Origin: Chlamydiales bacterium
GTDB taxonomy: Bacteria; Chlamydiota; Chlamydiia; Chlamydiales; JBDQID01
DNA: 14,980 bases
Direction: 5' to 3'
Assembly (NCBI GenBank): GCA_047611865.1
Contig: JBLFWS010000074.1
Location: 1 to 14,980, forward strand
Shown piece after piece: positions 1-14,980 of the stretch. A program made the position numbers and the translations under genes. Positions within the stretch are counted from its first letter, which is position 1, and each line of letters opens with the position of its first letter. The notes under the pieces were generated by a model. That model did not search any database. It saw only the letters and a list, made by a program, of their open reading frames with translations, and was not told where the DNA came from.

Positions 1-1
1 G

Positions 2-358
2 TTCTGCTGTGATACGAAAAATATTAGCTTCCGGCACGGGGAGTTTGGAAAAGGCGGCATCCATAGCCATTTTGTAGTTGCTATCAGGATGTGTTGGAGG
101 GACAGGTCTTTCATCTCCCCAAAAAATCTTTACCTTACTCCAGTCAGCCCTATTGGCATTTTTGGGTAGAGCGAGGCGCTCGTACATGGCTTTTGGAGTA
201 CTTCCTCCTGAGAGGGCAACAAAAAAGTTTCCTCTTTTTTCGATAGCCTCATTGGCGAGAGAAAAAAAATGTTCGCTACAAAAGTCAATTGTCTTTTCGT
301 AGTCTCCAGGTATTACGATGTTGTATTTTTCTCCAAATGGCTTAATTTTGCTTTGCAT
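2..358 (-). CDS. pgl: 6-phosphogluconolactonase (DevB/Pgl), 5' part only; runs off the left edge of the window
   Basis: Not in the ORF track. Manual translation from the ATG at 358 gives MQSKIKPFGEKYNIVIPGDYEKTIDFCSEHFFSLANEAIEKRGNFFVALSGGSTPKAMYERL...DWSKVKIFWGDERPVPPTHPDSNYKMAM, open to the edge. LSGGSTP and FWGDER.VP..HPDSNY are 6PGL motifs. It follows zwf-opcA and overlaps the opcA 3' end by 17 nt. Confidence 0.95.
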   Translation of the reverse strand, partial: MQSKIKPFGEKYNIVIPGDYEKTIDFCSEHFFSLANEAIEKRGNFFVALSGGSTPKAMYERLALPKNANRADWSKVKIFWGDERPVPPTHPDSNYKMAMDAAFSKLPVPEANIFRITAE

Positions 359-1442
359 ATTCTTCCTGCTGTTTGGCTAATACCTGTAATGTTTCAAAAT
401 AATCTGAGTTTAACGGGGCATAAAAGGTTTCCTGAATCAAGGACTGTTCTTTATTGAGATACGAAAGAGGGAGTGTTATGGGGAAGTTACATCTTTCAGG
501 AGTGCTTGTCTGAATACGAATAAGCCTGTGGAGGCCTTGTCTTTTGAGGGAATATTTTTGTTTATCATGAGTGGAAATTTCAATAGAGGTGATGGCTCCT
601 GAGCAATATTCTTCACGAGATTCAGGGCTTATAGAAATAGTTAGAGTGCCGTATTTGTGCTGATAAAGAAAGTTTTGTTTTCCCTCAGAGGTGAAAGAAT
701 CGAGAAAGGACCAACCAAGCTTTGCAGCAAGCCAGCATTGTAGGTATCTTGAGCGGAGGGACGGTTGGGGTATTAGTGGGTCAATCAAGTCACTATAGCT
801 GATGTGGATATTTTGGCTTTTTGATAGATGTTCCCGCCTTTCTTTTGTATCGAAAGTTTTTGCCAGAATATGTCTCCATTCGCTAAGGCGTGCCCAATTG
901 AGATCAGTACTTGTATTGTTGGACGGGCTTAAGCGAGAGAGTAGGGTCCGGGTAAAACCGGAGAGGTCATGGCTAGCATCGGAATCATAAATAATTCTTG
1001 TGGAAAATTTTTGCAGTTGCTGGAAGGTTGAGCGGTCTTCACAAGGCTCCTTCCCCCAAGCCAGGTAAACGGGGATGTCAGGAATAATATGAGGCAATAT
1101 GATAAAAGGTACCCTTTCCAGATGCTTGCCGGCAGCTTCAATAGAAATTAACTCGCAGGTAATGCTATGGCCAAGTTTTTCTACGGATTCAGCAGAAACG
1201 CTGGTACGTAGATACTCTTGTCCTATAGTGGAGTTCCCCGTAACAAAAATTATTCGGCAGGGGTACTGATGCATAAGGGTATCGACAAGGTATTGGTAGT
1301 AATCGAGGCGTTCAGAATATGGCGCATAGATGATTAGGGTGTAAAGACAGGCACGCGCCCTGTTATCTTCATCAAAGGAATTCCATATCTCCTGTAGTTC
1401 CTCTTCTATATTTGCCAGGAAGACATCTGCTTTAGTAATCAT
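342..1442 (-). CDS. opcA: Glucose-6-phosphate dehydrogenase assembly protein OpcA
   Basis: 366 aa, located between zwf and pgl. Motifs RACLYTLII, YPCRIIFV, ITCELISI, ILPHIIPDIPVYLAW, RIIYDS, DLNWARLSEWR and WLAAKLGW are typical of OpcA. RBS-like AAGGGGGA ends 8 nt before the ATG. Confidence 0.9.
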   Translation of the reverse strand: MITKADVFLANIEEELQEIWNSFDEDNRARACLYTLIIYAPYSERLDYYQYLVDTLMHQYPCRIIFVTGNSTIGQEYLRTSVSAESVEKLGHSITCELISIEAAGKHLERVPFIILPHIIPDIPVYLAWGKEPCEDRSTFQQLQKFSTRIIYDSDASHDLSGFTRTLLSRLSPSNNTSTDLNWARLSEWRHILAKTFDTKERREHLSKSQNIHISYSDLIDPLIPQPSLRSRYLQCWLAAKLGWSFLDSFTSEGKQNFLYQHKYGTLTISISPESREEYCSGAITSIEISTHDKQKYSLKRQGLHRLIRIQTSTPERCNFPITLPLSYLNKEQSLIQETFYAPLNSDYFETLQVLAKQQEEYAKQN

Positions 1443-1464
1443 AGTAAAGGTCCCCCTTAACTTA

Positions 1465-3012
1465 TTATAGGATGCGCCAGGATCGACCTGTTTTGCTTAT
1501 CATTTCATCGGCAGCCTGCGGGCCCCATGTTCCAGAAGGGTAATTGGGGAAGTCCTCAGGTATTTCCTCGGACCACCTATCAAGTATGGGGGTCAGAAGG
1601 CGCCAGGAGGCCAGTACCTCATCACCACGCGTGAATAGTGTACTGTCACCAGAGATGCAGTCGCAGATTAATCTTTCGTAAGCATCGGGAGAGCTTAAGC
1701 CAAAGGTAGATCCATAGTGAAAATTCATTTTTACAGGTTGAAAGCGGCTGCTAAGTCCCGGAACTTTGCAATTTATTTTCAAAGAAATACCTGCGTCTGG
1801 TTGAATCCGGATTACAAGAACGTTAGCCTCAACAGACTGGACATTTTGCTGGAAAAGTATGCTGGGAACATCTTTGAAGGTGATGGCAATTTCGGTAGCG
1901 CGTTTTGGTAGTCGCTTGCCGGCGCGTAGAAAGAAAGGAACACCGGTCCAGCGCCAGTTGTCGATAAAGAATTCCAGGGCTACAAAAGTTTCTGTTTGAG
2001 ATGTGGGGCAAACATTCTCTTCTTCACGGTAACCTTTGACGCTTTGTGAATTTATGAACCCAGGGGCATATTGTCCTCGAACAACCTGCTTATGAAAAGA
2101 AGACAAATCAACTGGACGGATAGACTGGAGTACCTTGACCTTCTCGTCACGAATGGAGTCGGCGTTGAGGTTAACAGGGGGTTCCATGGCTACCAGACAG
2201 AGGAGTTGCATCAGATGGTTTTGGACGACATCGCGCAGGAGGCCAGCTTCTTCAAAAAAACGCCCTCGGGTTCCTATGCCAATGTCTTCACCTACAGTAA
2301 TTTGAATATGATCGATATTTTGCTTATTCCAAAGTGACTCAAAAATAGAATTCGCGAATCGAAAAACCATCAGGTTTTGGACTGTTTCCTTACCCAGGTA
2401 GTGATCGATACGGTAAACCTGGTCTTCACTTAAGTATTTGAGGAGGTGTTTTTCCAGAGAGATTGCCGAAGCCAAGTCGTGGCCAAAGGGCTTTTCTACG
2501 ATGACTCGGGACCATTTATCCAAAGTTGTTTTGCTATTGTATAGCAAACCGTGCTCGTAGAGTTTTTCCGTTATCAATGGAAAGTGGCTGGGAGGGGTAG
2601 AAAGGTAATGTATTCTGTTGCCACGAGTACCAAATTCTTTGTCAAGCTCATCCAAAAAAACGTGTAGAGAGCTGTATCCCAGGTCTTTGTCAAACTCAGA
2701 TTTATGATAGAAAAGCTGTTTGCTAAAGGTATCCCAAACTTCCGCATCGACCTCGCCAGTCGTTGAGTGAGTACGGATGGCATTGTACATCTCTTCTCGG
2801 AAGAGATCGTGATCCTTTTCTCTACGGGCAAATCCGACACAGGCGAATTGAGTGGGAAGCTGACCTTTGAGAGCTAGCTGATATAGCGAGGGAATAAGTT
2901 TGCGTGCGGTGAGATCTCCCGTAGCTCCGAAAATCACAAGGATGCAAGGATTTAGGGCTTCGAAGGTTTGAGATGCTTCTTCTAAGGGGTTTTCCAGGAT
3001 AGTGCTTTCCAT
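1465..3012 (-). CDS. zwf: Glucose-6-phosphate 1-dehydrogenase
   Basis: GATGDL NADP-binding motif, EKPFG, RIDHYLGKETVQN and DNWRWTGVPFFLRAGKRL. The ORF track starts at 3030. The ATG at 3012 (MESTILENP) is preferred because AGGA lies 5 nt upstream and the predicted promoter lies very close to 3030. Confidence 0.97.
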   Translation of the reverse strand: MESTILENPLEEASQTFEALNPCILVIFGATGDLTARKLIPSLYQLALKGQLPTQFACVGFARREKDHDLFREEMYNAIRTHSTTGEVDAEVWDTFSKQLFYHKSEFDKDLGYSSLHVFLDELDKEFGTRGNRIHYLSTPPSHFPLITEKLYEHGLLYNSKTTLDKWSRVIVEKPFGHDLASAISLEKHLLKYLSEDQVYRIDHYLGKETVQNLMVFRFANSIFESLWNKQNIDHIQITVGEDIGIGTRGRFFEEAGLLRDVVQNHLMQLLCLVAMEPPVNLNADSIRDEKVKVLQSIRPVDLSSFHKQVVRGQYAPGFINSQSVKGYREEENVCPTSQTETFVALEFFIDNWRWTGVPFFLRAGKRLPKRATEIAITFKDVPSILFQQNVQSVEANVLVIRIQPDAGISLKINCKVPGLSSRFQPVKMNFHYGSTFGLSSPDAYERLICDCISGDSTLFTRGDEVLASWRLLTPILDRWSEEIPEDFPNYPSGTWGPQAADEMISKTGRSWRIL

Positions 3013-3047
3013 TTTTTCCTGTCGGTACATGCTTTCGTAAGGGGGTT

Positions 3048-3076
3048 ACTATAAACTTTAACTTCGGAAAAAGCAA
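3048..3076 (-). promoter_or_regulatory. Putative sigma70/sigma66 promoter of the zwf-opcA-pgl operon
   Basis: Minus strand TTGCTT (3076-3071), 17-nt spacer, TATAGT (3053-3048), directly upstream of zwf. Confidence 0.55.
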
Positions 3077-3188
3077 GTATACAGCGATTATTCGTTGTGA
3101 ATAAGGGGTAGACGGAAATTTCAATTTTGTTGATAGTCCAGACCTAAATCTAAGTCTACAAATTCAAAATTTAACTTTCTGGTGACTT

Positions 3189-6100
3189 ATGCAAGCATTC
3201 TATCGTGATGTTCCAGCTTTCAAAAAATATATCTCTCCAAAGCTATTACAAGAGTTATTAGAAGATACTGAGCCTGTCCCTGGTGTGGCGGGGTTACAGG
3301 TAAAGCGTGGATTGATGGAGGCGTTTAGCAGAACGGAGACAGCGGAGTCACTGGATTTTATCTGTCGCTTGTATATTAAGGTGCGAAAGGATCTTTCATT
3401 ACTTTTGGAAAAGCGTCGTGTGGACCGCAATTTTATTGACATTACGACAAAAGCATGCGGGATAAGAAACGAAAAAAATGCAACGGATTACCTGAGCGTT
3501 GATTATGAGACTGTGATCGGCAAGAGAAATGAGGATGGTGAATTGGTTGTAGGTCCTTATTCGAACATGTTTTCAGGGGAACATCAGATTGCAGAAATTC
3601 CGGACTGTTTAAAGGGGAAACATGTCACCCTTTTTGGTCCTGCTGACAGTGCAAAGATGTCCATTAATGCGATGAATGCCTGGCATAGAATCCCTAAGAA
3701 TGAGTCTGCTATTATTACAAAATTGGTAAATGATTCAGGGATAATCCCCAAGTGGGGAGCAGATGATGAAGATTCCAAGACACCAGAAAACACCACCTTT
3801 GCATCAGCCTGTAATAATTTGATTGATTGTTTTCATCGAACTATATCCTTTAGAGATGAGAAGAGCTCTCAGGAATATCACTTAGCTAGTGACAAACTTT
3901 CCCTTCCTATCAAAAGACCTCCTGGTTTGGAGTTACCAGACGGTGGGCACATATTTCAAGGTAACCCTTTACCCCTTCATTTGTACGACTTCGCTAACCA
4001 TCTCTTCCATTGCTGGGATAAGCCGGAAGCTTTGAGTTTTTATATACCTAAATTGGAAAATGAAGGCGAAGCCCAGTATGTGAAAAAGCTTGTCTCCAAA
4101 GCTGAAGAGATGATTCAGGAGTTACATCCAGAATATAAGTCTGGGTCAGTACGATTGTTTATCGTGTTTGAAAATCCACGAGCCATATTTCGTATGCGTG
4201 AGATTATTTCAGAACTCTATCCCTACTTTGCTGGAGGCTCCTTGGGGTGGCACGATTACCTGGCATCAACAGCAAGGCTATTCCGTTTTGACAAAAACTA
4301 CCGCATACCTGTGAAAGCAGACCCTAACATTGTTATCGACCATATTAAAGCTTCCCATGTACTTGTAGCCAAGACTGTGGGGGAGCATGGGGGTATTGGC
4401 ATAGGAGGAATGTACGGCGTATTGCCTGAAGGGGGTAATGCGGAGTCAGAGGCTGTCGCGATGATAGGCTTTATCAAAGACGTCGTTACACAAATGAAGA
4501 GGGGCTTAGACGGTTTTTGGGTGGCTCATCCCGATTTTGTACGACCAGGAATTGCTTTGGTAGAGGCGTGGGGTAGGTATGCAGAGGATTCGGAAGATAA
4601 ATCTTTGTTTCAGCTAATTGGAGAGCTAATAGAGGATTCTCAAGATCAGGGTATGCTTGTAGAATTTATCAAAGGCAAGGATGTCATGGGATTGGATGGT
4701 GAGGATCCATTATTTCCAAGAGCTCTATTAGCGGCAAACATACGGGAATCGAATGTTATCCCTAACAATCATCCCGATGAAATACGCTATAATGTTTTTC
4801 AAGCCCTACAGTATATGGTCGATTGGCTATGCGGAAATGGTTGTGTGGCTTTACCCGCGATGATGAAAAACTCTCAGGGGAAAGATGTATTTGTACGGAT
4901 TATGGACGACCTGGCAACGACTGAGCGGTCACGCTGGGAGCTTTGGGCAGAGGTTTATCATAAAAGGTTTTCTCAGAGTGATTTTCTAAAGGTCGCTTAT
5001 GAAGAGATGCATTTTATTCAGAAGGGTAAAGAAAGCGAAATTAAAAAGACCCAGGTTAAATGGAATAAGCTAACGGAAAAATGGTACCCAGTTGCCTTAA
5101 AGGTTCTTATCCAGCTGGTGACAGATCCAAATCCAGTGGAATTTGTGAGCGAACTTTTACTTCCCTTTACTTTTGATAGCATCCGTCAGTCGGATGATCC
5201 ATGGAAGAAAGCTTCTGCAATGGAAGGGCATAAATATTCCCTGGAGGATGATGTTAGAGGGTTTTGTTCTTATTTCCAGCAATGTGGAAGTGTAAAATAT
5301 GCTGAGGGGATGTCTCAACAGGACTACAACACTGTGGAGGACTTACTCTCTATCTCACGCGAAAAGATTCTGGAATTTGATATTGATGAGATCAATGCAG
5401 CGGCGGGCTTTCACGGAACTATAGGAGAATCTCAGGCTACTCTCAATGGGGTGGAATCAGAAGAGCAGGCTCTAGTGCAAGAATCCCATGAGGAGCTTCT
5501 GGAAAAAGGATCTCTCTATCAAAAACAGTTTGGAATGAAGTTCTTGATTGCAGCGAGCGGTAAAAGCAGTGAAATAATACTGAGAGAGCTGGATGGACGT
5601 TTAAAGAATAACTTGGATGAAGAAATTCAAAATGCCAAAGAGGCTCTTGTGGCAATCACAGAAAAGCGCTTAAAAGAACAATGTGGAAACCCAGATAATT
5701 TTAGCTTCTTGTCTACGGGAAAAATCATAGAAGATCTTTTGGGAAAATATGAGGTAGCAGGTGTTAATGTGAGCCTGCTGAGAAAGGGGAGTGAAGGATT
5801 ATGTGAGCTATCAGGGGATTTCTCAGCTGGACTCTCGAATAAGGAAAACATGACAGCTATGAAAGCCGGAACTATTTTACAAATGGCCTCACTCAGCAAA
5901 ACGATTGCAGCGGCATTTGCCATGGAATATTTTAGAAAAAAAGAGATCAGCCTTGATACCCCAGTGAATGACTTACTTTTAGCGTCCGGATCTCCATTTC
6001 AAATTCAGTCGGCAGTAAATTGTCCGAATGAGTGGGCAGCAGAAGTGAGCTTGAAGCACCTTCTAAATCATTCAGCAATGGGTATGCATTATGTAGATGG

Positions 6101-8042
6101 CTATCCCTTGGGTCAGGGCAGTCCCGATGCTTTTGACCTTCTTTTAGGTACTCATGGAACTGAGGCTATTCTTTTACATAAAAAACCTGGAACAGAGTTT
6201 CATTATTCAGGGGGAGGCTTTCTCCTTCTTCAGCATTTGTTAGAAGCGATATTTTCCAAGTCAATAGCAGATATTATGCGTCCGTTTCTTGATGATTTGG
6301 GTATGCAGGATTTTAGTTTTCGTGAGATGGAAAACAAAGAATACGCTTTTGGCTTTAGGGATGATGGGAATCTCGTCGCAGCAGAGGGCCGGCTAGCTTT
6401 TCCAGAACTCGCAGCTGGTGGAGAAGGGACGACGAATGCTATGGCTAAGTTTTTGTCTCACCTCGTGAATGCCTATCATTCCCTTGAGGGTTCTGGTCCG
6501 TTATCTCATGACACCGCGGTTGAAATGCTCTATGCGGGTCGAGACTTTGGCAGTATGGAATTTATGGGGGCAAAGATGGGCCTCGGTGTCTTTTTAGGGG
6601 AAGCGGGACCTAATAGAATAGCTGTGCATCAAGCGGCAAATGATGGATTCAGGGGTTTGTATCTTGTTTGTTATAAGGGCCCCGACGAGGGAAAGGGTTT
6701 TGTAATTGTAAGCAATGGAGACAATAAGGCTACGTTGCTTAATTGTGAGATAGCCAGGAATTTGATGGAAGCTGAGGAATGGAGAGGAACGGATTTTAAA
6801 TCAATAAAGCCCCTGGAAATTACGGGTCTTAAGCAGGAAGAGATAGTCAATATAGGTGTGAAAGAAATGCTCCTTAAACATCTCTCTATTGAATTAGCAG
6901 ATCCGATGCTGGCTTTAGGAGACGTTGATCCTTTTTCTCCTGTAAACCTGGCGTGTAATTCCACAATCAACTTTTGCTCTAATCAAAGATTTGCTCGAGC
7001 AGAAAACTTGTTTTTATCGACGTTACCCGCATTTGATCCAGAGGCTTATGGAAAAGATGGCAAGATTATGGATAGCTGGGAATCTGAACGTCATAATGTA
7101 GAGGATTATGATTTTGTCGAATTTACTCTACAGTCGCCTGCTTCTTTTAATATGCTTCATCTGTCTACCATGTTTCATGATGGGAACCATGCCGAGAGTA
7201 TTCAGCTTGAAGCCTGGGAGGGTGAGCAATGGGTGGACTTGATTGAAAAAATTCCGCTTGAGGGACACTCCAGTCATTGGTTTAGGCTAGAGAAAGCTCA
7301 AGAGGGACTATGGTCTAAACTGAGATTGCGTAACTATCCTGATGGGGGAATATCCAGGATTGGACTCTATCATTTAAAAGATTTAAAACCTTTAGTTCAG
7401 GATCTTGAACTGAAGTCATTCTTGGAAGGGACAGAAAAGAAGCTAATCATTCCCTATTCTTTTTCCATTCCTACTCAAAAAGAAAAAAAAATGACAATGC
7501 CTCATCTGATTGAGGAAGCAGAAGTGGAAAAGAATTGGAAAGGCGTAAAGCTTGGGGACAGGGTCAATGTCGCGAGTGAGTGCATGGGAGGGGAAATTCT
7601 TGAGGTTTCTAACGAACACTATGGTTCTGCGTACAGGATCTTGTCGTCTGAGATAGCTCTCGGAATGGATGACGGTTTTGAAACGAAAAGGAATAGGGAA
7701 GGGAAGTTTGAAGAGATTATTTTTGCGTTAGGAAGGCCAGCAATAATTGAAGAAATAGAGCTGGATTTTACTCATTTCGTAAACAACAACCCCATGAATA
7801 TGGATGTGTCCGGATATCTTGAAGGAGAATGGATGGACTTGCTTCCTAAAACTTTTGTGAAGCCTTACCGGGGTAATAAATTTAGAAGGCATACGGAAAA
7901 ATGTGGGGATCGTGTATCACAAATTAGAGTCCGTATTTATCCCTGTGGAGGTTTTAACAGAATAAAAGTTATGTGCACGGCAGATCAGGAGCTTCTGAAA
8001 ATTGAGCAAAAAATTCAGGGGTCTGTGATGACTCCTGAATGA
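3189..8042 (+). CDS. Four-domain fusion: malate synthase A-like / OHCU decarboxylase (UraD) / beta-lactamase-family serine hydrolase / allantoicase
   Basis: 1617-aa open frame. aa ~40-660 malate synthase: ADDEDSKTP, KRPPG, FYIPKLE, IVFEN, GWHDY, GGM, DGFWVAHP, WLCGNGCV, IMDDLATTERSR. aa ~690-830 UraD: CGSVKYAEGM, HGTIGE, SEEQA, YQKQFGMKFLIAASGKS..IL..L..RL.N...E...A, ITEKRL. aa ~845-1195 serine hydrolase: ASLSK (SxxK), LLNHSA, PGTEFHYSGGG, HQAANDGF. aa ~1250-1595 two allantoicase repeats: MDSWESERH and YPDGGISRIGLY; SNEHYG, MDDGFETKRNR, DFTHFVNNNP and IYPCGGFNRIKV. Confidence 0.88.
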   Translation: MQAFYRDVPAFKKYISPKLLQELLEDTEPVPGVAGLQVKRGLMEAFSRTETAESLDFICRLYIKVRKDLSLLLEKRRVDRNFIDITTKACGIRNEKNATDYLSVDYETVIGKRNEDGELVVGPYSNMFSGEHQIAEIPDCLKGKHVTLFGPADSAKMSINAMNAWHRIPKNESAIITKLVNDSGIIPKWGADDEDSKTPENTTFASACNNLIDCFHRTISFRDEKSSQEYHLASDKLSLPIKRPPGLELPDGGHIFQGNPLPLHLYDFANHLFHCWDKPEALSFYIPKLENEGEAQYVKKLVSKAEEMIQELHPEYKSGSVRLFIVFENPRAIFRMREIISELYPYFAGGSLGWHDYLASTARLFRFDKNYRIPVKADPNIVIDHIKASHVLVAKTVGEHGGIGIGGMYGVLPEGGNAESEAVAMIGFIKDVVTQMKRGLDGFWVAHPDFVRPGIALVEAWGRYAEDSEDKSLFQLIGELIEDSQDQGMLVEFIKGKDVMGLDGEDPLFPRALLAANIRESNVIPNNHPDEIRYNVFQALQYMVDWLCGNGCVALPAMMKNSQGKDVFVRIMDDLATTERSRWELWAEVYHKRFSQSDFLKVAYEEMHFIQKGKESEIKKTQVKWNKLTEKWYPVALKVLIQLVTDPNPVEFVSELLLPFTFDSIRQSDDPWKKASAMEGHKYSLEDDVRGFCSYFQQCGSVKYAEGMSQQDYNTVEDLLSISREKILEFDIDEINAAAGFHGTIGESQATLNGVESEEQALVQESHEELLEKGSLYQKQFGMKFLIAASGKSSEIILRELDGRLKNNLDEEIQNAKEALVAITEKRLKEQCGNPDNFSFLSTGKIIEDLLGKYEVAGVNVSLLRKGSEGLCELSGDFSAGLSNKENMTAMKAGTILQMASLSKTIAAAFAMEYFRKKEISLDTPVNDLLLASGSPFQIQSAVNCPNEWAAEVSLKHLLNHSAMGMHYVDGYPLGQGSPDAFDLLLGTHGTEAILLHKKPGTEFHYSGGGFLLLQHLLEAIFSKSIADIMRPFLDDLGMQDFSFREMENKEYAFGFRDDGNLVAAEGRLAFPELAAGGEGTTNAMAKFLSHLVNAYHSLEGSGPLSHDTAVEMLYAGRDFGSMEFMGAKMGLGVFLGEAGPNRIAVHQAANDGFRGLYLVCYKGPDEGKGFVIVSNGDNKATLLNCEIARNLMEAEEWRGTDFKSIKPLEITGLKQEEIVNIGVKEMLLKHLSIELADPMLALGDVDPFSPVNLACNSTINFCSNQRFARAENLFLSTLPAFDPEAYGKDGKIMDSWESERHNVEDYDFVEFTLQSPASFNMLHLSTMFHDGNHAESIQLEAWEGEQWVDLIEKIPLEGHSSHWFRLEKAQEGLWSKLRLRNYPDGGISRIGLYHLKDLKPLVQDLELKSFLEGTEKKLIIPYSFSIPTQKEKKMTMPHLIEEAEVEKNWKGVKLGDRVNVASECMGGEILEVSNEHYGSAYRILSSEIALGMDDGFETKRNREGKFEEIIFALGRPAIIEEIELDFTHFVNNNPMNMDVSGYLEGEWMDLLPKTFVKPYRGNKFRRHTEKCGDRVSQIRVRIYPCGGFNRIKVMCTADQELLKIEQKIQGSVMTPE

Positions 8043-8072
8043 TATGTCCTCTTAGCAATTTGAGCGTTGAAA

Positions 8073-8111
8073 GTGCGACACAAAAAAGTAATCAACTCTT
8101 TTGTGCCGCAC
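8073..8111 (-). terminator. Stem-loop between the convergent fusion gene and MATE gene; probable terminator
   Basis: Plus strand GTGCGACACAAAAAAG-TAATCAA-CTCTTTTGTGCCGCAC. The two A/C mismatches become G-U pairs in the minus-strand RNA, giving a ~16-bp continuous stem that starts 10 nt after the MATE stop. It is followed by only a short UUUC. Confidence 0.6.
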
Positions 8112-8120
8112 CTACCGAGC

Positions 8121-9500
8121 TTAAACCAAGCGCTTTGTTTTCCAGCTTCCTTTGCGGAATCTTAAGTAAAAACAAAGGGCATTGATTGCGGCATAGCCGT
8201 TGAGTATGACCCAAACATAACTGGGCGGGCAATCCCCCTGCACTACGAGGAAATAAACGGGAAGAACAGCAAAGGTCCAGGTGGTGACGGTGTTGATGAT
8301 CATCACATATGTGGTCTCGCCAGCAGCCGTAAGTACTCCGGCCGATATCCAGGTTAATCCATCGAGGACAAAGTAGAAAAAAATGCATGCAGCAGTAATT
8401 CTTAACATTGCCGTTAAGTGAATAAGCCGCTCGGGGTTCATATCATCAGATAGAAAAAAACTGATAATGGGATCAGGGTAGAGTAATAAAATCGGGGCCA
8501 CCAAAAGCGCATAAATAAAGAGGAGTCGAACTGCAGACTTCCAGGCTTTTAGGATTAGGGCAGGTTTTCTTGCTCCCAAAAAGTTTGCACTGATGGTGGT
8601 GATTCCTTTCTGTAAACCTTCCATGGCATAAGATATTAGGGCATAAAAACATTGGCCCATAGCTGCAACGGTGATGTGATCTTCACCGACGCCAATCAAC
8701 AGACGAGTAATCAATGCCCAAGCGGAAATTTCTATCATATGGCCCATCGCACTGGGAACTCCAACTTTAAGACAGTTCCAAAATACCTGGATTTTGAAGC
8801 CATACCTTCTTGTTCCATACTGAAGATTGTAGTGCTTATTCAGAAAACTGCTTAAGAGAACTAAGACCTGGATGAACATGGAGATTACAGTGGCAATAGC
8901 TGCTCCTTCACAACCCATAGCTGGAATGATTTCTCTAAAACCGAATACTAAAAGGATATCTAGAATGACGTTTAGGACATTTCCGATAATTGCTGCTTTT
9001 GTGACAATGCGTACTGAACCAATACCAATGAAAAATGCAGATATGGCTGTTTGCATAGGGAAAAGTGGGCCAAAATAAAGTAGCCATTGAAAATAGGGAA
9101 GAGCATGACTCTCATAATGGTAGTCAGCAAGAAAGAGCGGCCCTCCCCAATGGGCAATAGCAAAGAAAACGGGCCAGCAGAATAAAGAAAACCAGATCAT
9201 TTGCCAGGCAGGGCTAGCTGCCTTGTCCTTTTCTCCAGCTCCATTATGTTGTCCTACAAAAACTTCAGCAATTGAACTTATGCCGATGGCTCCATAATGG
9301 AAGACAAAGATGACCATGCCAGCAGCAGCAGCAGCGTTCATAGCTTCCAGGGAGAATTTTGCCAAAATAAGGCGGTCTAGAAAGAGCATGACGCTTCCTG
9401 ATAAAACGGAAAGCATCAGGGGGAATGAGATGGCAAACATCTCTTTGATGCTGCCTTCAGGATGTCTAGTTAATTTTTGAATTTTACTTTTAGTAGTCAT
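8121..9500 (-). CDS. MATE family efflux transporter
   Basis: 459 aa with about 12 hydrophobic segments. Motifs ISFPLMLS...FLDRLILA, VGQHNGAG, GNVLNVILDILLVFG...PAMGCEGAAIAT and ISANFLGA are typical of MATE. AGGA RBS lies 6 nt upstream of the ATG. Confidence 0.92.
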   Translation of the reverse strand: MTTKSKIQKLTRHPEGSIKEMFAISFPLMLSVLSGSVMLFLDRLILAKFSLEAMNAAAAAGMVIFVFHYGAIGISSIAEVFVGQHNGAGEKDKAASPAWQMIWFSLFCWPVFFAIAHWGGPLFLADYHYESHALPYFQWLLYFGPLFPMQTAISAFFIGIGSVRIVTKAAIIGNVLNVILDILLVFGFREIIPAMGCEGAAIATVISMFIQVLVLLSSFLNKHYNLQYGTRRYGFKIQVFWNCLKVGVPSAMGHMIEISAWALITRLLIGVGEDHITVAAMGQCFYALISYAMEGLQKGITTISANFLGARKPALILKAWKSAVRLLFIYALLVAPILLLYPDPIISFFLSDDMNPERLIHLTAMLRITAACIFFYFVLDGLTWISAGVLTAAGETTYVMIINTVTTWTFAVLPVYFLVVQGDCPPSYVWVILNGYAAINALCFYLRFRKGSWKTKRLV

Positions 9501-9677
9501 GGTGTGTCCTATTACACAAAAATATAAGTATAAAAAATATTAAAATCAGATTCTGCAGTACAGCAAATAAAACGAATATCTTCTTTCGTTAAATGGCAAA
9601 CTACAAAGGTAAGGCAACAAAGTAGACAGAGAGAAATGATATTTCAAAGTGTTGCTACAGTGTCTTCTTTCTTTGAC

Positions 9678-9713
9678 TTATGCAGAGAATGGAGTTTTGT
9701 GAATGACTATCAT
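9678..9713 (-). other. Candidate 11-aa leader peptide (uORF) MIVIHKTPFSA in the MATE 5' leader
   Basis: Minus strand AGGGAG-acgtc-ATG ATA GTC ATT CAC AAA ACT CCA TTC TCT GCA TAA, ~40 nt downstream of a good promoter match. Translation is not demonstrated. Confidence 0.35.
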
Positions 9714-9755
9714 GACGTCTCCCTAATATTCGGAGGAAATTAAAAACTATTTACA

Positions 9756-9784
9756 AGTATAGCAATTGCAGATGGATATGTAAA
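9756..9784 (-). promoter_or_regulatory. Putative sigma70/sigma66 promoter for the MATE gene
   Basis: Minus strand TTTACA (9784-9779), 17-nt spacer, TATACT (9761-9756). Both hexamers match consensus at 5/6, and the upstream sequence is AT-rich. Confidence 0.6.
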
Positions 9785-9824
9785 TAAAATTTGTGTTGAG
9801 ATTAGAATTTTGTCGGGTGAAGAC

Positions 9825-10295
9825 CTATCCCTGACCCAACTTACTAATAATATCAAACTCATTTTTCTTGATAGGCTGGATAGAAAGTCTTACCCCTTTT
9901 TTTATGAGTGTCATGTCTTCTAGTCCGGGGGTTTCTCTAATTTGTGATAGAGGAACATAGGTTGAAAATTTCTCGACAAATTCGAAGTCGACCATATACC
10001 AAGTTGGATCTTCTTTTTTGGTCTTTGGATCGAAGGTCTTGCACTTGGGGTCCCAGGCTGTAAAGTCGGGGTATCCCTCCTTGCAAACTTGGACGACACC
10101 TGCAGCTCCAGGAGGGTTTGTGCTGGAGTGATAAAAGATGGCTATGTCACCAATCTTTAGGGTGTCACGTAGAAAGTTTCGTGCCTGATAATTTCGTATC
10201 CCATCCCAATGTTCCTGATGATTTTTTTCCATGTCGTCGATGGAGTAGGCTGAGGGCTCGGACTTGATTAACCAGTAGTTGATGTTCTTCGCCAT
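9825..10295 (-). CDS. EVE domain-containing protein (PUA-like, THYN1-type)
   Basis: YWLIKSEP..YSIDD, WDGIRNYQARNFLR, GD..IFYHS, YPDFTAWDP, PTWYMVD and RLSIQPI are EVE signatures. RBS AAGGAG overlaps the nadA stop. Confidence 0.95.
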   Translation of the reverse strand: MAKNINYWLIKSEPSAYSIDDMEKNHQEHWDGIRNYQARNFLRDTLKIGDIAIFYHSSTNPPGAAGVVQVCKEGYPDFTAWDPKCKTFDPKTKKEDPTWYMVDFEFVEKFSTYVPLSQIRETPGLEDMTLIKKGVRLSIQPIKKNEFDIISKLGQG

Positions 10296-10307
10296 TTCCA
10301 GGACTCC

Positions 10308-11342
10308 TTAGCTGTATTTGAACATTTCTTCGAGGCAGTTCTTTGCCCCTTTACGAACATCTTCTTCGACTTCCACAATGTCATCCGGACGAGGATCTCT
10401 TAGGGCTCTTTCAAGCTGTCCGAGAGTATTAGACTTCATATATTTGCACAACATGCAAGTTCCGGCCATTTTAGCTTCTGGGACTTCAATTTGAAGACGA
10501 GAGACCAGGCCGCATTCAGTGAGTAGCAGGAAGCGATTGTTGTCCTTGGCATGTTCTTTGACATAGTTTGCCATTCCTGTGGTGGAGCCCACGACGTCAG
10601 CTTTTGCTAGAACTTCAGGGGTACATTCCGGGTGGGCTAGAACGACTGTGTTGGGGTGGAATTCTTTTGCTATGTCAATGAGCTCGGGAGTAAATTGTTC
10701 GTGTACATAACAGGTGCCATCATAGAGAAGAATTTCCTTTTTGATACCTTTCTGACGTAAGTGTTCACGAATATTGAGTCCCATTAGCTTATCAGGGACA
10801 AAGTAAATTTTGTCGTTGGGGTATTCTTCTACAATTTTGTAGACATTAGAAGAGGTGACACATACATCACAGGCGGCCTTTACGGCAGCAGTGGTGTTGA
10901 TGTAGCACATGAAAGTATGCTCAGGATGACTTTTACGAAGTGCTAGGACATCTTCTGCTGTAATACTGTCAGCTAGTGAGCAGCCACCGTTAGGGTTGGG
11001 ATCGATGACAAGTTTGTCTGGATTCAAAATTTTTGCAGTTTCAGCCATAAAGCGTACGGAGGGGAAAACGATCGTAGATTCAGTAGCCTCCATTGCTTTT
11101 AGGGCAAGGCCATAAGAGTCACCGACATGGTCCGCGACAGTATAAATAATGTCGGGGTGGACGTAGGAATGTGCGAGAATCAGTGCATTTCTTTGCTTTT
11201 TTAATTCGAGGATTCGGTTGACGGTAGGGACCAGGCGTTCACAACGTTCTAAGCTGTAAAGGCAAGCTGGATTATCAACTTGAACATCTTTAAGTTTTAG
11301 GTAGAGGTCATCCGCTGACCATTTGTCAGTTTGCATTGTCAT
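10308..11342 (-). CDS. nadA: Quinolinate synthase NadA
   Basis: ILAHSY, GDSYGL, VRFMAETAKILNPDK, GGCSLA, YINT...KA, CVTSSN, GTCYVH, AHPEC, GSTTGM and CKYMK. The three [4Fe-4S] cysteines are present. Confidence 0.96.
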   Translation of the reverse strand: MTMQTDKWSADDLYLKLKDVQVDNPACLYSLERCERLVPTVNRILELKKQRNALILAHSYVHPDIIYTVADHVGDSYGLALKAMEATESTIVFPSVRFMAETAKILNPDKLVIDPNPNGGCSLADSITAEDVLALRKSHPEHTFMCYINTTAAVKAACDVCVTSSNVYKIVEEYPNDKIYFVPDKLMGLNIREHLRQKGIKKEILLYDGTCYVHEQFTPELIDIAKEFHPNTVVLAHPECTPEVLAKADVVGSTTGMANYVKEHAKDNNRFLLLTECGLVSRLQIEVPEAKMAGTCMLCKYMKSNTLGQLERALRDPRPDDIVEVEEDVRKGAKNCLEEMFKYS

Positions 11343-11364
11343 GAGAGTGATTCCATAAAGATCA

Positions 11365-11856
11365 TTAAAAGTTGTCAGGAAAATTAGGCATTTCGGGCAT
11401 CAGGGTATTCGATTTTCCGTCGAGGTAGCTTTGTAGGATAAGTACCGCGGCAATAGAGTCAATGGCTTTGGCGCGTTTTTTTCTGGAAAGTTTTGCATCA
11501 CGCATGGAGCGATCAGCTTGCATGGATGTCAGGCGTTCATCCCAAGTAACGAGTGGGCACGTAATCGCCTCTCGGAGGAGGTCTGAGAATTGAACGGCTT
11601 CATCAGTCATTGAGCTCATAGAACCGTTCATTTTTAATGGTAAGCCCACTACGACTTCGTCGATGCCTTTACCACTTTCTTCAAGACGTGCGATTTCCGT
11701 CGCAACTTTTGCGACGGAATCTTCAATCTTTTTTTCCGCTTTAATGGTAGTTAAAGGGGAGGCGATGATCTTTCGTTCATCGCTCATAGCCATCCCTATA
11801 CGTGCCCTTCCATAGTCAATGCCGATTGATCGGCTCTTTCTTCCTTGATTTAACAT
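11365..11856 (-). CDS. ruvX: YqgF/RuvX family nuclease (pre-16S rRNA nuclease / putative Holliday junction resolvase)
   Basis: IGIDYGRARIGMAMSD, VVVGLPLKMNG, WDERLTS and IDSIAAVLILQSYLD. Confidence 0.95.
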   Translation of the reverse strand: MLNQGRKSRSIGIDYGRARIGMAMSDERKIIASPLTTIKAEKKIEDSVAKVATEIARLEESGKGIDEVVVGLPLKMNGSMSSMTDEAVQFSDLLREAITCPLVTWDERLTSMQADRSMRDAKLSRKKRAKAIDSIAAVLILQSYLDGKSNTLMPEMPNFPDNF

Positions 11857-11860
11857 ACAA

Positions 11861-14238
<2,378 letters not shown>

Positions 14239-14279
14239 AAGCTGAATATCTACCAATTCTTCTTACTATTTAACGCAAT

Positions 14280-14309
14280 ATAGTACCCTTAATTACACAT
14301 AAGTTTCAA
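14280..14309 (-). promoter_or_regulatory. Possible sigma70/sigma66 promoter for kdsB-pyrG-ruvX-nadA-EVE
   Basis: Minus strand TTGAAA (14309-14304), 18-nt spacer, TACTAT (14285-14280). The region is AT-rich, so a chance match is possible. Confidence 0.4.
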
Positions 14310-14603
14310 GAGAAGTTTTTCAAAGTAGTACTAGTAAAATACTTAATTTAAAAAGTAGCTGAAAAGGAGGGGTGAAGCTGCTAAAGTTATTTTTACATTT
14401 GGGACTGGTCTTTTTACGTAATTCACCACTGAGCCATTTAGAACACAGAGGAGTGATGAGATAGGGAGACAGGGCAATCGAATTACAATAATTTCTTGAC
14501 CTTCTCATGACAGTAACCTGCGGGATTCAGAAAAAATATCCCAAATTTAATAGTGTTTCGGTGGTGACGCAGCTGCCGCAGTTCTATTTTTTAATTTACT
14601 TGC

Positions 14604-14635
14604 TATACCGGGCCTTGCTCGCAAGGCCCGGTATA
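14604..14635. repeat. Perfect 15-bp inverted repeat (palindrome) with a 2-nt spacer
   Basis: TATACCGGGCCTTGC-TC-GCAAGGCCCGGTATA; the two arms are exact reverse complements. Confidence 0.9.
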
Positions 14636-14643
14636 ATGGTAAG

Positions 14644-14677
14644 AAAAAAATGTGAGCACCGCAGGTACGGCACTCAC
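14644..14677 (-). terminator. Intrinsic (Rho-independent) terminator on the minus strand
   Basis: Minus-strand RNA GUGAGUGCCG-UACCUG-CGGUGCUCAC-A-UUUUUUU: a 10-bp GC-rich stem with two G-U pairs (mismatches on the other strand) followed by seven U. Confidence 0.7.
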
Positions 14678-14980
14678 TCAGAATTTATAATGGCAGACAG
14701 CTATTCCAGGTTATACTATCGCTTAAAAAAAATAGCTTCTAAGAAATATCGAAAAAATCTTTTAAAATATTATTTATAATACGATTGCCTTCATAGGGAG
14801 AAACTAAGCTGTTATTTTTTCACGTATTGTCATTTCTTGAAGGGTCACCTTGTTTAAGGTGATTGATTGGGTATAGGCTTTAACTTGCTGATCAATTTTA
14901 ATATGAAGCTATTGAAAATGGCTTAAAATGCCTGATCGTATGACTCCCCCTCAGGTATCTGACATGTTCTCTGTGTTCTC

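Follow-up and report, generated by a model that had tools for sequence, protein, structure and literature searches.

Enzymes of purine catabolism can be found fused on a single polypeptide, and to our knowledge such fusions are known only as two-domain cases. For example, Bacillus PucL is a two-domain fusion of uricase and UraD. Further along the pathway, allantoicase has allantoinase as its upstream neighbour and ureidoglycolate lyase as its downstream one. A 2026 review of the evolution of urate-catabolic enzymes contains 52 occurrences of the word 'fusion', and all of the passages shown concern Urah-Urad (PMC13751858). A term search of the same review finds no mention of a beta-lactamase or a serine hydrolase (PMC13751858). 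In zebrafish, a malate-synthase-like protein has been reported to be an (S)-ureidoglycolate lyase without synthase activity; its glyoxylate site is that of the E. coli enzyme except for Arg276Ile and Trp365Met, and the gene for this type of lyase co-evolves with that of allantoicase (PMC10120013). Here we describe a gene found in a 14,980-nucleotide stretch of DNA from a Chlamydiales bacterium (assembly GCA_047611865.1, contig JBLFWS010000074.1, positions 1 to 14,980; hereafter the window), which encodes a malate-synthase-like module, a decarboxylase (UraD) of 2-oxo-4-hydroxy-4-carboxy-5-ureidoimidazoline (OHCU), a beta-lactamase-fold serine hydrolase and an allantoicase on one chain. We propose, at a probability of a little under one half (about 0.48), that this is a genuine and conserved multifunctional enzyme of the lower half of urate degradation, which would carry out the four steps from OHCU to glyoxylate and two urea.

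Four enzyme modules in one reading frame

The fusion gene is one ATG-started open reading frame (ORF; 3189..8042 on the plus strand) whose stop-free translation gives a protein of 1617 aa (P0001). Chance is excluded for an open frame of this length because, by our own arithmetic, 1617 codons would stay open with a probability of (61/64)^1617, or about 1e-34. All Pfam family matches in the protein exceed their gathering scores. These are the malate synthase pair PF01274/PF20659, with MS_TIM-barrel at aa 241-451 (77 bits, cut-off 26.4) and MS_C at aa 530-654 (38.4 bits, cut-off 23.1), OHCU_decarbox (PF09349) at aa 703-829 (66.5 bits, cut-off 24), Beta-lactamase (PF00144) at aa 846-1180 (92.1 bits) and two copies of Allantoicase (PF03561) at aa 1258-1394 and about 1458-1598 (163.6 bits). 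A sequence-only reading of this DNA, made earlier without database searches, had laid out four modules on the frame and had named the profiles expected to match, the repeated allantoicase included; all of them do match, essentially at the nucleotide ranges that it gave (the limits of the modules are collected in Table 1).

Matches to the NCBIfam equivalogs all lie well below their thresholds, with 133.8 against 594.5 bits for malate synthase A (TIGR01344, N-terminal module), 172.6 against 277.9 for allantoicase (TIGR02961), 67.4 against 139.4 for the UraD equivalog domain (TIGR03180) and 23.7 against 415 for bla_class_C. Each of the four modules has therefore diverged within its superfamily. 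The folds of the two familiar kinds of allantoinase, Amidohydro_1 (AllB type) and Polysacc_deac_1 (PuuE type), have no Pfam match anywhere in the 1617-aa protein.

Distribution of the architecture

Searching with the whole protein finds 621 proteins at E <= 0.001 (among 7992 candidates scored), and among the 120 matches listed all but two are 1530-1669 aa long, with the same Pfam set and all four modules. For instance, P0002 has 1625 aa, is 79% identical to the fusion protein and contains the same five Pfam families. A genome scan restricted to one genome per species gave 597 pattern matches, 525 of which encode a relative of the fusion protein, mostly in Bdellovibrionota and Planctomycetota. 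The architecture is thus not rare. For the analysis of gene context, 80 of the 525 stretches (L001-L080) were examined with 10 kb on either side of the gene; they come from Bacteriovoracaceae, Bdellovibrionaceae, Oligoflexales, Planctomycetia and Phycisphaerales. An uninterrupted ORF of more than 1480 aa is present in 62 of these loci; another 16 run into a contig end, L050 has the gene in two parts, and L010 has no clean ORF. The junctions between the modules are real, and an assembly chimera or a pseudogene is ruled out by full-length relatives such as P0002 and those in the 62 intact loci.

In the databases, relatives go under the names 'serine hydrolase', 'malate synthase' and 'allantoicase/malate synthase/CubicO group peptidase'. 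Full-text literature searches found no published characterisation of the four-module architecture, in agreement with the earlier reading, which knew of no characterised protein of this kind. The architecture is therefore widespread and, as far as the searches show, uncharacterised.

Two variants of the arrangement can be mentioned here. In a Halobacteriovorax metagenome-assembled genome (L050:9977-14612), the fusion gene appears as two ORFs of 1010 and 523 aa, which may reflect a frameshift, a sequencing error or a real split. A transcript of Percolomonas cosmopolitus (P0085, 1619 aa) combines the malate-synthase-like, serine hydrolase and allantoicase modules without a Pfam match to UraD; it groups loosely with the fusion protein of the window, and contamination or gene transfer are possible sources.

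Urate genes beside the fusion gene

The 80 loci contain 1095 ORFs, which were clustered, and representatives of all 104 clusters found in at least two loci were annotated with Pfam and NCBIfam. A PuuD-type urate oxidase (PF06181) is present in 60 loci, and a hydrolase of 5-hydroxyisourate (HIU) that passes its equivalog cut-off is likewise present in 60. Cofactor-less uricase is found in four, the planctomycete ones, so that 64 loci have either PuuD or uricase; a xanthine dehydrogenase gene of any kind occurs in 25. Altogether, at least one of these urate genes accompanies the fusion gene in 71 of the 80 loci. Upstream sequence of at least 2.5 kb is available for 58 loci. In 41 of these, the gene directly preceding the fusion gene, in the same orientation, encodes HIU hydrolase; 30 show the full order PuuD-HIU hydrolase-fusion, and 4 have no urate gene. 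Other recurrent neighbours include adenosine deaminase, guanine-deaminase-like proteins, a xanthine/uracil permease and molybdenum-cofactor genes. A role in urate and ureide catabolism, first suggested from the modules themselves, is borne out by this context, and the assignment of the fusion protein to the pathway is strongly supported.

Canonical allantoinase and AllA-type ureidoglycolate lyase, on the other hand, are essentially absent near the fusion gene. Searches by tblastn with E. coli AllA, AllC, AllE, AllD, Gcl and AceA gave no match in the 80 loci or the window, and AllB matched solely in L002 (31.6% identity) and weakly in L012. The match in L002 adjoins an NCS1 transporter, an aldehyde dehydrogenase and an aminotransferase, surroundings that look like pyrimidine catabolism. 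No PuuE type (Polysacc_deac_1) is found among the representatives of the 104 clusters, a scan that covered neighbours recurring in at least two loci. An amidohydrolase neighbour in L039 and L063 was considered as an allantoinase and rejected, as it is guanine-deaminase-like.

The neighbouring PuuD-type oxidases come in two forms, 19 of the 60 with a CxxCH haem-c motif and 41 without it. The eight CxxCH forms for which lengths were printed have 390-422 aa, and the median of all 60 is about 534 aa. One representative of 532 aa has a weak CarboxypepD_reg-like C-terminus.

The malate-synthase-like module

The N-terminal module is about 690 aa long, compared with 533 aa for E. coli malate synthase A (AceB), to which it is about 27% identical. 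It has standalone homologues of about 680 aa that are 53-59% identical to it; there are 814 such matches, and the named ones belong to Bradymonadaceae, Myxococcota, Planctomycetota and Halobacteriovoraceae. The closest to the window module in a domain tree is P0122, with 64% identity over 510 columns. In a HMMER scan of 1.84 billion cluster representatives, members of this family are at least 36% identical to the module (at least 38% by the search's own measure), whereas ordinary malate synthases of 500-560 aa reach 27-35%, with a clear gap between the two. Many of the lineages with a standalone module (Bradymonadaceae, Myxococcota and Planctomycetota; among P0122-P0241) are predatory.

Aligning 36 rows of the family with 27 canonical rows, and numbering residues as in the E. 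coli enzyme, reveals which parts of the active site are retained. The module and its family keep Arg166, Glu250, Asp278, Trp365 and Asp447, and Arg166, Glu250, Asp278 and Asp447 are found in 35-36 of the 36 family rows; we take Arg166 and Asp447 to be catalytic, and Glu250 and Asp278 to be Mg ligands, in malate synthase A. Replacements are found at Pro168, Ser273, Trp276, His277 and Tyr331. Within the family, Trp276 is present in 36, His277 in 35 and Pro168 in 32 of the 36 rows, whereas the canonical rows have Arg168 (27/27), Arg276 (26/27) and Trp277 (26/27) at these places around the glyoxylate site. When the 105 positions conserved in 26 canonical rows are considered, 55 are kept in the family and 50 are changed. 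The sequence-only reading had called the module malate synthase A-like; by its TIGR01344 score and the loss of Arg168, Arg276 and Trp277, it is not a canonical malate synthase A. Nor does the family appear to be of the zebrafish type: it shares the loss of Arg276, with Trp in its place, but keeps Trp365, and the Ile276/Met365 pair of the zebrafish protein occurs in none of 56 aligned longer representatives (of 150 listed).

An intermediate group (P0305, P0320 and P0330) also has Trp276-His277. In an IQ-TREE phylogeny of 67 rows, from which P0259, P0263 and P0300 were left out as fragmentary or degenerate, a split with 100% SH-aLRT support sets off each of the three groups (the present family, the intermediate one and the canonical one). 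The fusion partners follow the active-site types. P0305 and P0330, of the Trp276-His277 type, are fusions of a malate-synthase-like module with allantoicase, and P0300 joins a serine hydrolase to allantoicase; in the canonical Arg-Trp-Asp representatives P0345, P0364, P0365 and P0382, the partner is isocitrate lyase. The hub of these fusions is thus allantoicase, with the serine hydrolase and the Trp-His malate-synthase-like module as its partners. For P0320, the nearest Atlas cluster (score 0.93) bears the name 'malate synthase-like' and has 69% eukaryotic members, which can serve as a lead only. Malate had been put forward earlier as the end product of the fusion protein. It may be glyoxylate instead, because ureidoglycolate lyase activity has been demonstrated for malate-synthase-like proteins of vertebrates (PMC10120013).

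The UraD, serine hydrolase and allantoicase modules

The UraD module aligns with the structures 3o7h and 5uou, and with the Klebsiella OHCU decarboxylase through the H-P/G..IGE, EQ and RL motifs. Its His742, Glu759 and Arg827, which we take to be the catalytic residues of UraD, are invariant in 42 of 42 rows of the alignment (A3). At the C-terminal end of the protein, both allantoicase repeats align with yeast allantoicase (1sg3), including the DxWE..R and PDGG motifs.

Between them lies the serine hydrolase module, which has three motifs, S901-L-S-K904, Y1006-S-G and H1147-Q-G; none of them varies in any of 58 rows. Catalytic motifs of class C beta-lactamases and of the staphylococcal Flp protein are the counterparts of SxxK and the Tyr motif in alignments. 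The second motif, Y-S-G, has an invariant Gly for the Asn of Y-x-N, and the third, H-Q-G, departs from K/H-T/S-G. An AlphaFold (AF2) model built from the 58 sequences has a predicted local distance difference test score (pLDDT) of 95 and a predicted template modelling score (pTM) of 0.94. Foldseek places it among PDB structures with a probability of 1.0, at template modelling (TM) scores of 0.64-0.74 and 15-20% identity, and these matches hold at the level of the family only; they include Pab87, the IS11 esterase, LACTB, the R61 DD-peptidase, D-amino-acid amidase and ADC-7. In the Protein Atlas, the neighbours of the module are solely generic beta-lactamase and LACTB clusters. The module thus has the appearance of an active serine amidase or esterase that forms a separate subfamily, and homology does not reveal its substrate. 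The sequence-only reading had implicitly put it at the allantoinase step. This is plausible, and the gene context strengthens it, but both this substrate and the lyase rather than synthase chemistry of the N-terminal module are things that we still infer.

A proposed route from OHCU to glyoxylate

Set beside the urate context of the relatives, the near-absence of canonical allantoinase and AllA nearby and the catalytic motifs conserved in each module, the four modules would match four consecutive reactions. PuuD or uricase would oxidise urate, and the neighbouring HIU hydrolase would then hydrolyse HIU. The first substrate of the fusion protein is taken to be OHCU because the gene is the last of a puuD-hiuH-fusion operon in most relatives. 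The UraD module would decarboxylate OHCU to (S)-allantoin. The serine hydrolase, with Ser901 as nucleophile, would open the hydantoin ring and convert allantoin to allantoate, which the allantoicase module would split into (S)-ureidoglycolate and urea. Lastly, the N-terminal malate-synthase-like module would act as a lyase that releases glyoxylate and the second urea from ureidoglycolate. For two of the four modules, the current names are thus probably misleading. More tentatively, the beta-lactamase-fold module may be a non-homologous allantoinase and the Trp276-His277 clade a ureidoglycolate lyase of bacteria. In that case, the fusion gene and those of PuuD and HIU hydrolase, three in all, would suffice to go from urate to glyoxylate and two urea, a compact route that may be typical of bacteria living on other cells, such as Bdellovibrionota and other predators, Planctomycetota and the intracellular chlamydia.

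Several points weigh against this proposal. We know of no beta-lactamase-fold allantoinase, and the nearest solved structures, at 15-20% identity, are peptidases, amidases, esterases and beta-lactamases. An allantoinase or a ureidoglycolate lyase could be encoded elsewhere in the genomes, since the view extends 10 kb to either side of each gene. The window itself lacks genes for PuuD, HIU hydrolase, uricase and xanthine dehydrogenase. In the N-terminal module, the family keeps Trp365 (Met in the zebrafish lyase), Asp447, Met330, Met445, Cys438 and the GP..INAxNA motif; some of these presumably line the acetyl-CoA pocket, and synthase chemistry is possible because they are kept. The ureidoglycolate lyase group described for malate-synthase-like proteins consists of eukaryotic sequences only (PMC10120013).

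The alternative that survives best, which we regard as unlikely but serious, is that the N-terminal module is a true malate synthase. The protein would then lead from OHCU to malate, with the serine hydrolase as allantoinase and with ureidoglycolate either cleaved by the allantoicase or decaying spontaneously. Retention of Arg166, Asp447, Glu250, Asp278, Trp365, Met330, Met445 and Cys438 fits with such an enzyme, and its only solved relatives are malate synthase A, but the replacement throughout the family of Arg168, Arg276 and Trp277, which are found in 26-27 of 27 canonical rows, speaks against it, as does the shortfall against TIGR01344. Fusion partners point in the same direction, with canonical modules joined to isocitrate lyase and the Trp-His type to allantoicase. 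Yeast DAL7, a malate synthase inside the allantoin gene cluster, offers a precedent for the synthase; allantoicase users such as Pseudomonas, fungi and animals, however, each have a separate ureidoglycolate lyase, and by tblastn no lyase gene lies near the fusion in the 80 loci. That allantoicase might itself deal with ureidoglycolate is suggested by the title of reference 42 of PMC10120013, 'ureidoglycolate, a substrate of allantoicase'.

It is improbable, in our estimate, that the serine hydrolase is something other than the allantoinase, acting on another amide of the pathway (e.g., ureidoglycolate) or having no catalytic role, with the allantoinase found elsewhere in the genome. Motifs that are invariant in all 58 rows argue for activity, and the module stands between UraD and allantoicase, that is, in pathway order. 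Members of the fold are not known to open hydantoins, and the substrates of its structural neighbours are linear peptides, amides, esters or beta-lactams. A distant allantoinase would escape a view of 10 kb on either side of the gene, but the pathway genes cluster, and still an AllB-like gene is seen in at most two of the 80 loci and PuuE is not among the recurrent neighbours.

The chlamydial copy and its surroundings

In the window, the fusion gene is flanked by housekeeping genes: pgl, opcA and zwf precede it, and a MATE transporter gene, an EVE-domain gene, nadA, ruvX, pyrG and kdsB follow. The PyrG protein is 73-74% identical to Candidatus Protochlamydia proteins, and its named matches are all chlamydial, which places the source of the window among the environmental Chlamydiota. 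In a sister lineage, PyrG is 91% and the fusion protein 79% identical, and the two are probably on one contig, as 14,516 bp is given as the longest contig for both. The gene order matches that of Chlamydia, kdsB-pyrG-yqgF-zwf-devB, except that nadA, the EVE-domain gene, the MATE transporter gene and the fusion gene here separate ruvX from zwf.

The composition of the fusion gene, at 42.6% GC and 39.2% GC at third codon positions (GC3), can be compared with 42.4-46.2% GC and 38.7-49.0% GC3 in the flanking genes, and its codon use correlates at 0.68, within the 0.56-0.77 of the other genes. A recent horizontal transfer into the window was considered and leaves no sign in GC, GC3 or codon use. 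In a FastTree phylogeny of 77 rows (62 full-length ORFs from the loci and 15 database proteins, with 18 truncated or split loci left out), the window copy sits on a long stem and groups weakly with metagenome proteins and the Percolomonas transcript. Least likely among the readings weighed here is that the chlamydial copy is an orphan of an old horizontal transfer, which uses host-derived allantoin or allantoate and not urate of the bacterium's own making, or is heading to loss: the missing urate genes, the housekeeping neighbours and the long stem that the window protein shares with P0002 outside the Bdellovibrionota and Planctomycetota clades would fit with it, but the ORF is intact, every family-invariant residue is present (those of UraD included), a sister lineage with PyrG at 91% has retained the protein at 79% identity, its composition and codon use match those of the flanking genes, and the urate genes could sit elsewhere in the genome.

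Signals for expression were also sought. Consensus scans of the window for promoters and terminators gave results at or near chance level. The hairpin between the convergent fusion and MATE genes (Table 1) is not listed by the terminator scan; it is likely a bidirectional terminator. No tRNA and no Rfam match was found among RNA genes in the window. Among the remaining features, the EVE-domain protein (9825-10295, minus strand; 179 bits) is encoded directly downstream of nadA and has no NCBIfam match, and the gap of 324 bp between the MATE and EVE genes (9501-9824) has no ORF of at least 80 aa. A 90-aa ORF (14507-14779, plus strand) has no family match. GC skew is positive on the plus strand in 27 of 28 segments (-0.011 to 0.24), though 9 of the 10 genes lie on the minus strand.

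Table 1 Features of the window, with their positions in nucleotides and the evidence for each
Feature	Position	Strand	Evidence
Whole ORF, four-module fusion protein assigned to ureide catabolism	3189..8042	+	ORF list, translation, Pfam; relative P0002 79% identical
Malate-synthase-like module, aa 1-690	3189..5258	+	Pfam MS_TIM-barrel nt 3909-4541, MS_C nt 4776-5150
OHCU decarboxylase (UraD) module, aa 696-833	5274..5687	+	Pfam OHCU_decarbox
Beta-lactamase-fold serine hydrolase module, aa 836-1215, candidate allantoinase	5694..6833	+	Pfam match nt 5724-6728
Allantoicase, two jelly-roll repeats, aa 1258-1394 and about 1458-1598	6960..7982	+	Pfam, NCBIfam, alignment with yeast 1sg3
Divergent intergenic region between zwf (-) and the fusion gene	3031..3188		GGTGA 3 nt before the ATG
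Hairpin between convergent fusion and MATE genes	8073..8111		-20.7 kcal/mol, z = -3.9, 0/200 shuffles as stable
Gene order kdsB-pyrG-ruvX ... zwf-opcA-pgl	11861-14256, 1465-3030, 2-358	-	kdsB/pyrG overlap 37 nt

Implications

This family joins four modules, two of which differ from the textbook enzymes at the steps in question. Should the proposed route be correct, a new fold would be added to the allantoinases, and ureidoglycolate lyases derived from malate synthase would be extended from eukaryotes to bacteria. Annotations as 'malate synthase' and 'serine hydrolase' could then be corrected for the 621 fusion matches and the 814 matches of standalone length, and the gaps at allantoinase and ureidoglycolate lyase could be filled in metabolic reconstructions of predatory bacteria. 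Nature would also have provided, in this protein, a route from OHCU to glyoxylate on a single chain. That a chlamydia has it prompts one to ask whether these symbionts feed on the purine waste of their hosts.

Comparison with known systems

The malate-synthase-like protein of D. rerio (EC 4.3.2.3) resembles the N-terminal module in its membership of the malate synthase superfamily, its link to allantoicase and the loss of the Arg276 beside the Mg-binding Asp (PMC10120013). The two differ in that zebrafish has Ile276 and Met365 where the bacterial module has Trp276 and Trp365 (PMC10120013), and in that the bacterial module, at about 690 aa, carries large insertions and is fused to three other enzymes. 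The best solved relative of the module is E. coli AceB (malate synthase A, PDB 3CUZ), with which it shares Arg166, Glu250, Asp278, Trp365 and Asp447, but it is only about 27% identical to this enzyme and has Pro168, Ser273, Trp276, His277 and Tyr331 in place of conserved residues. Isocitrate lyase-malate synthase proteins (the C. elegans type and those mentioned above) likewise fuse the enzyme of an adjacent glyoxylate step; these keep the Arg-Trp-Asp site, whereas the Trp-His-Asp type is paired with allantoicase.

For the serine hydrolase, the enzymes at the same proposed position in the pathway are AllB/DAL1, a metal amidohydrolase, and PuuE, which has the polysaccharide-deacetylase fold. 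Neither is related in sequence or fold to the module, which belongs with the class C beta-lactamases and DD-peptidases. Among fusions, the closest in kind is the Urah-Urad 'allantoin synthase' (Arabidopsis TTL, diatom 5Z5M), in which consecutive urate enzymes, UraD among them, are fused as they are here (PMC13751858). Urah-Urad has two domains and covers the upstream steps; the protein described here combines UraD with three modules for downstream steps, while a separate neighbouring gene encodes HIU hydrolase.

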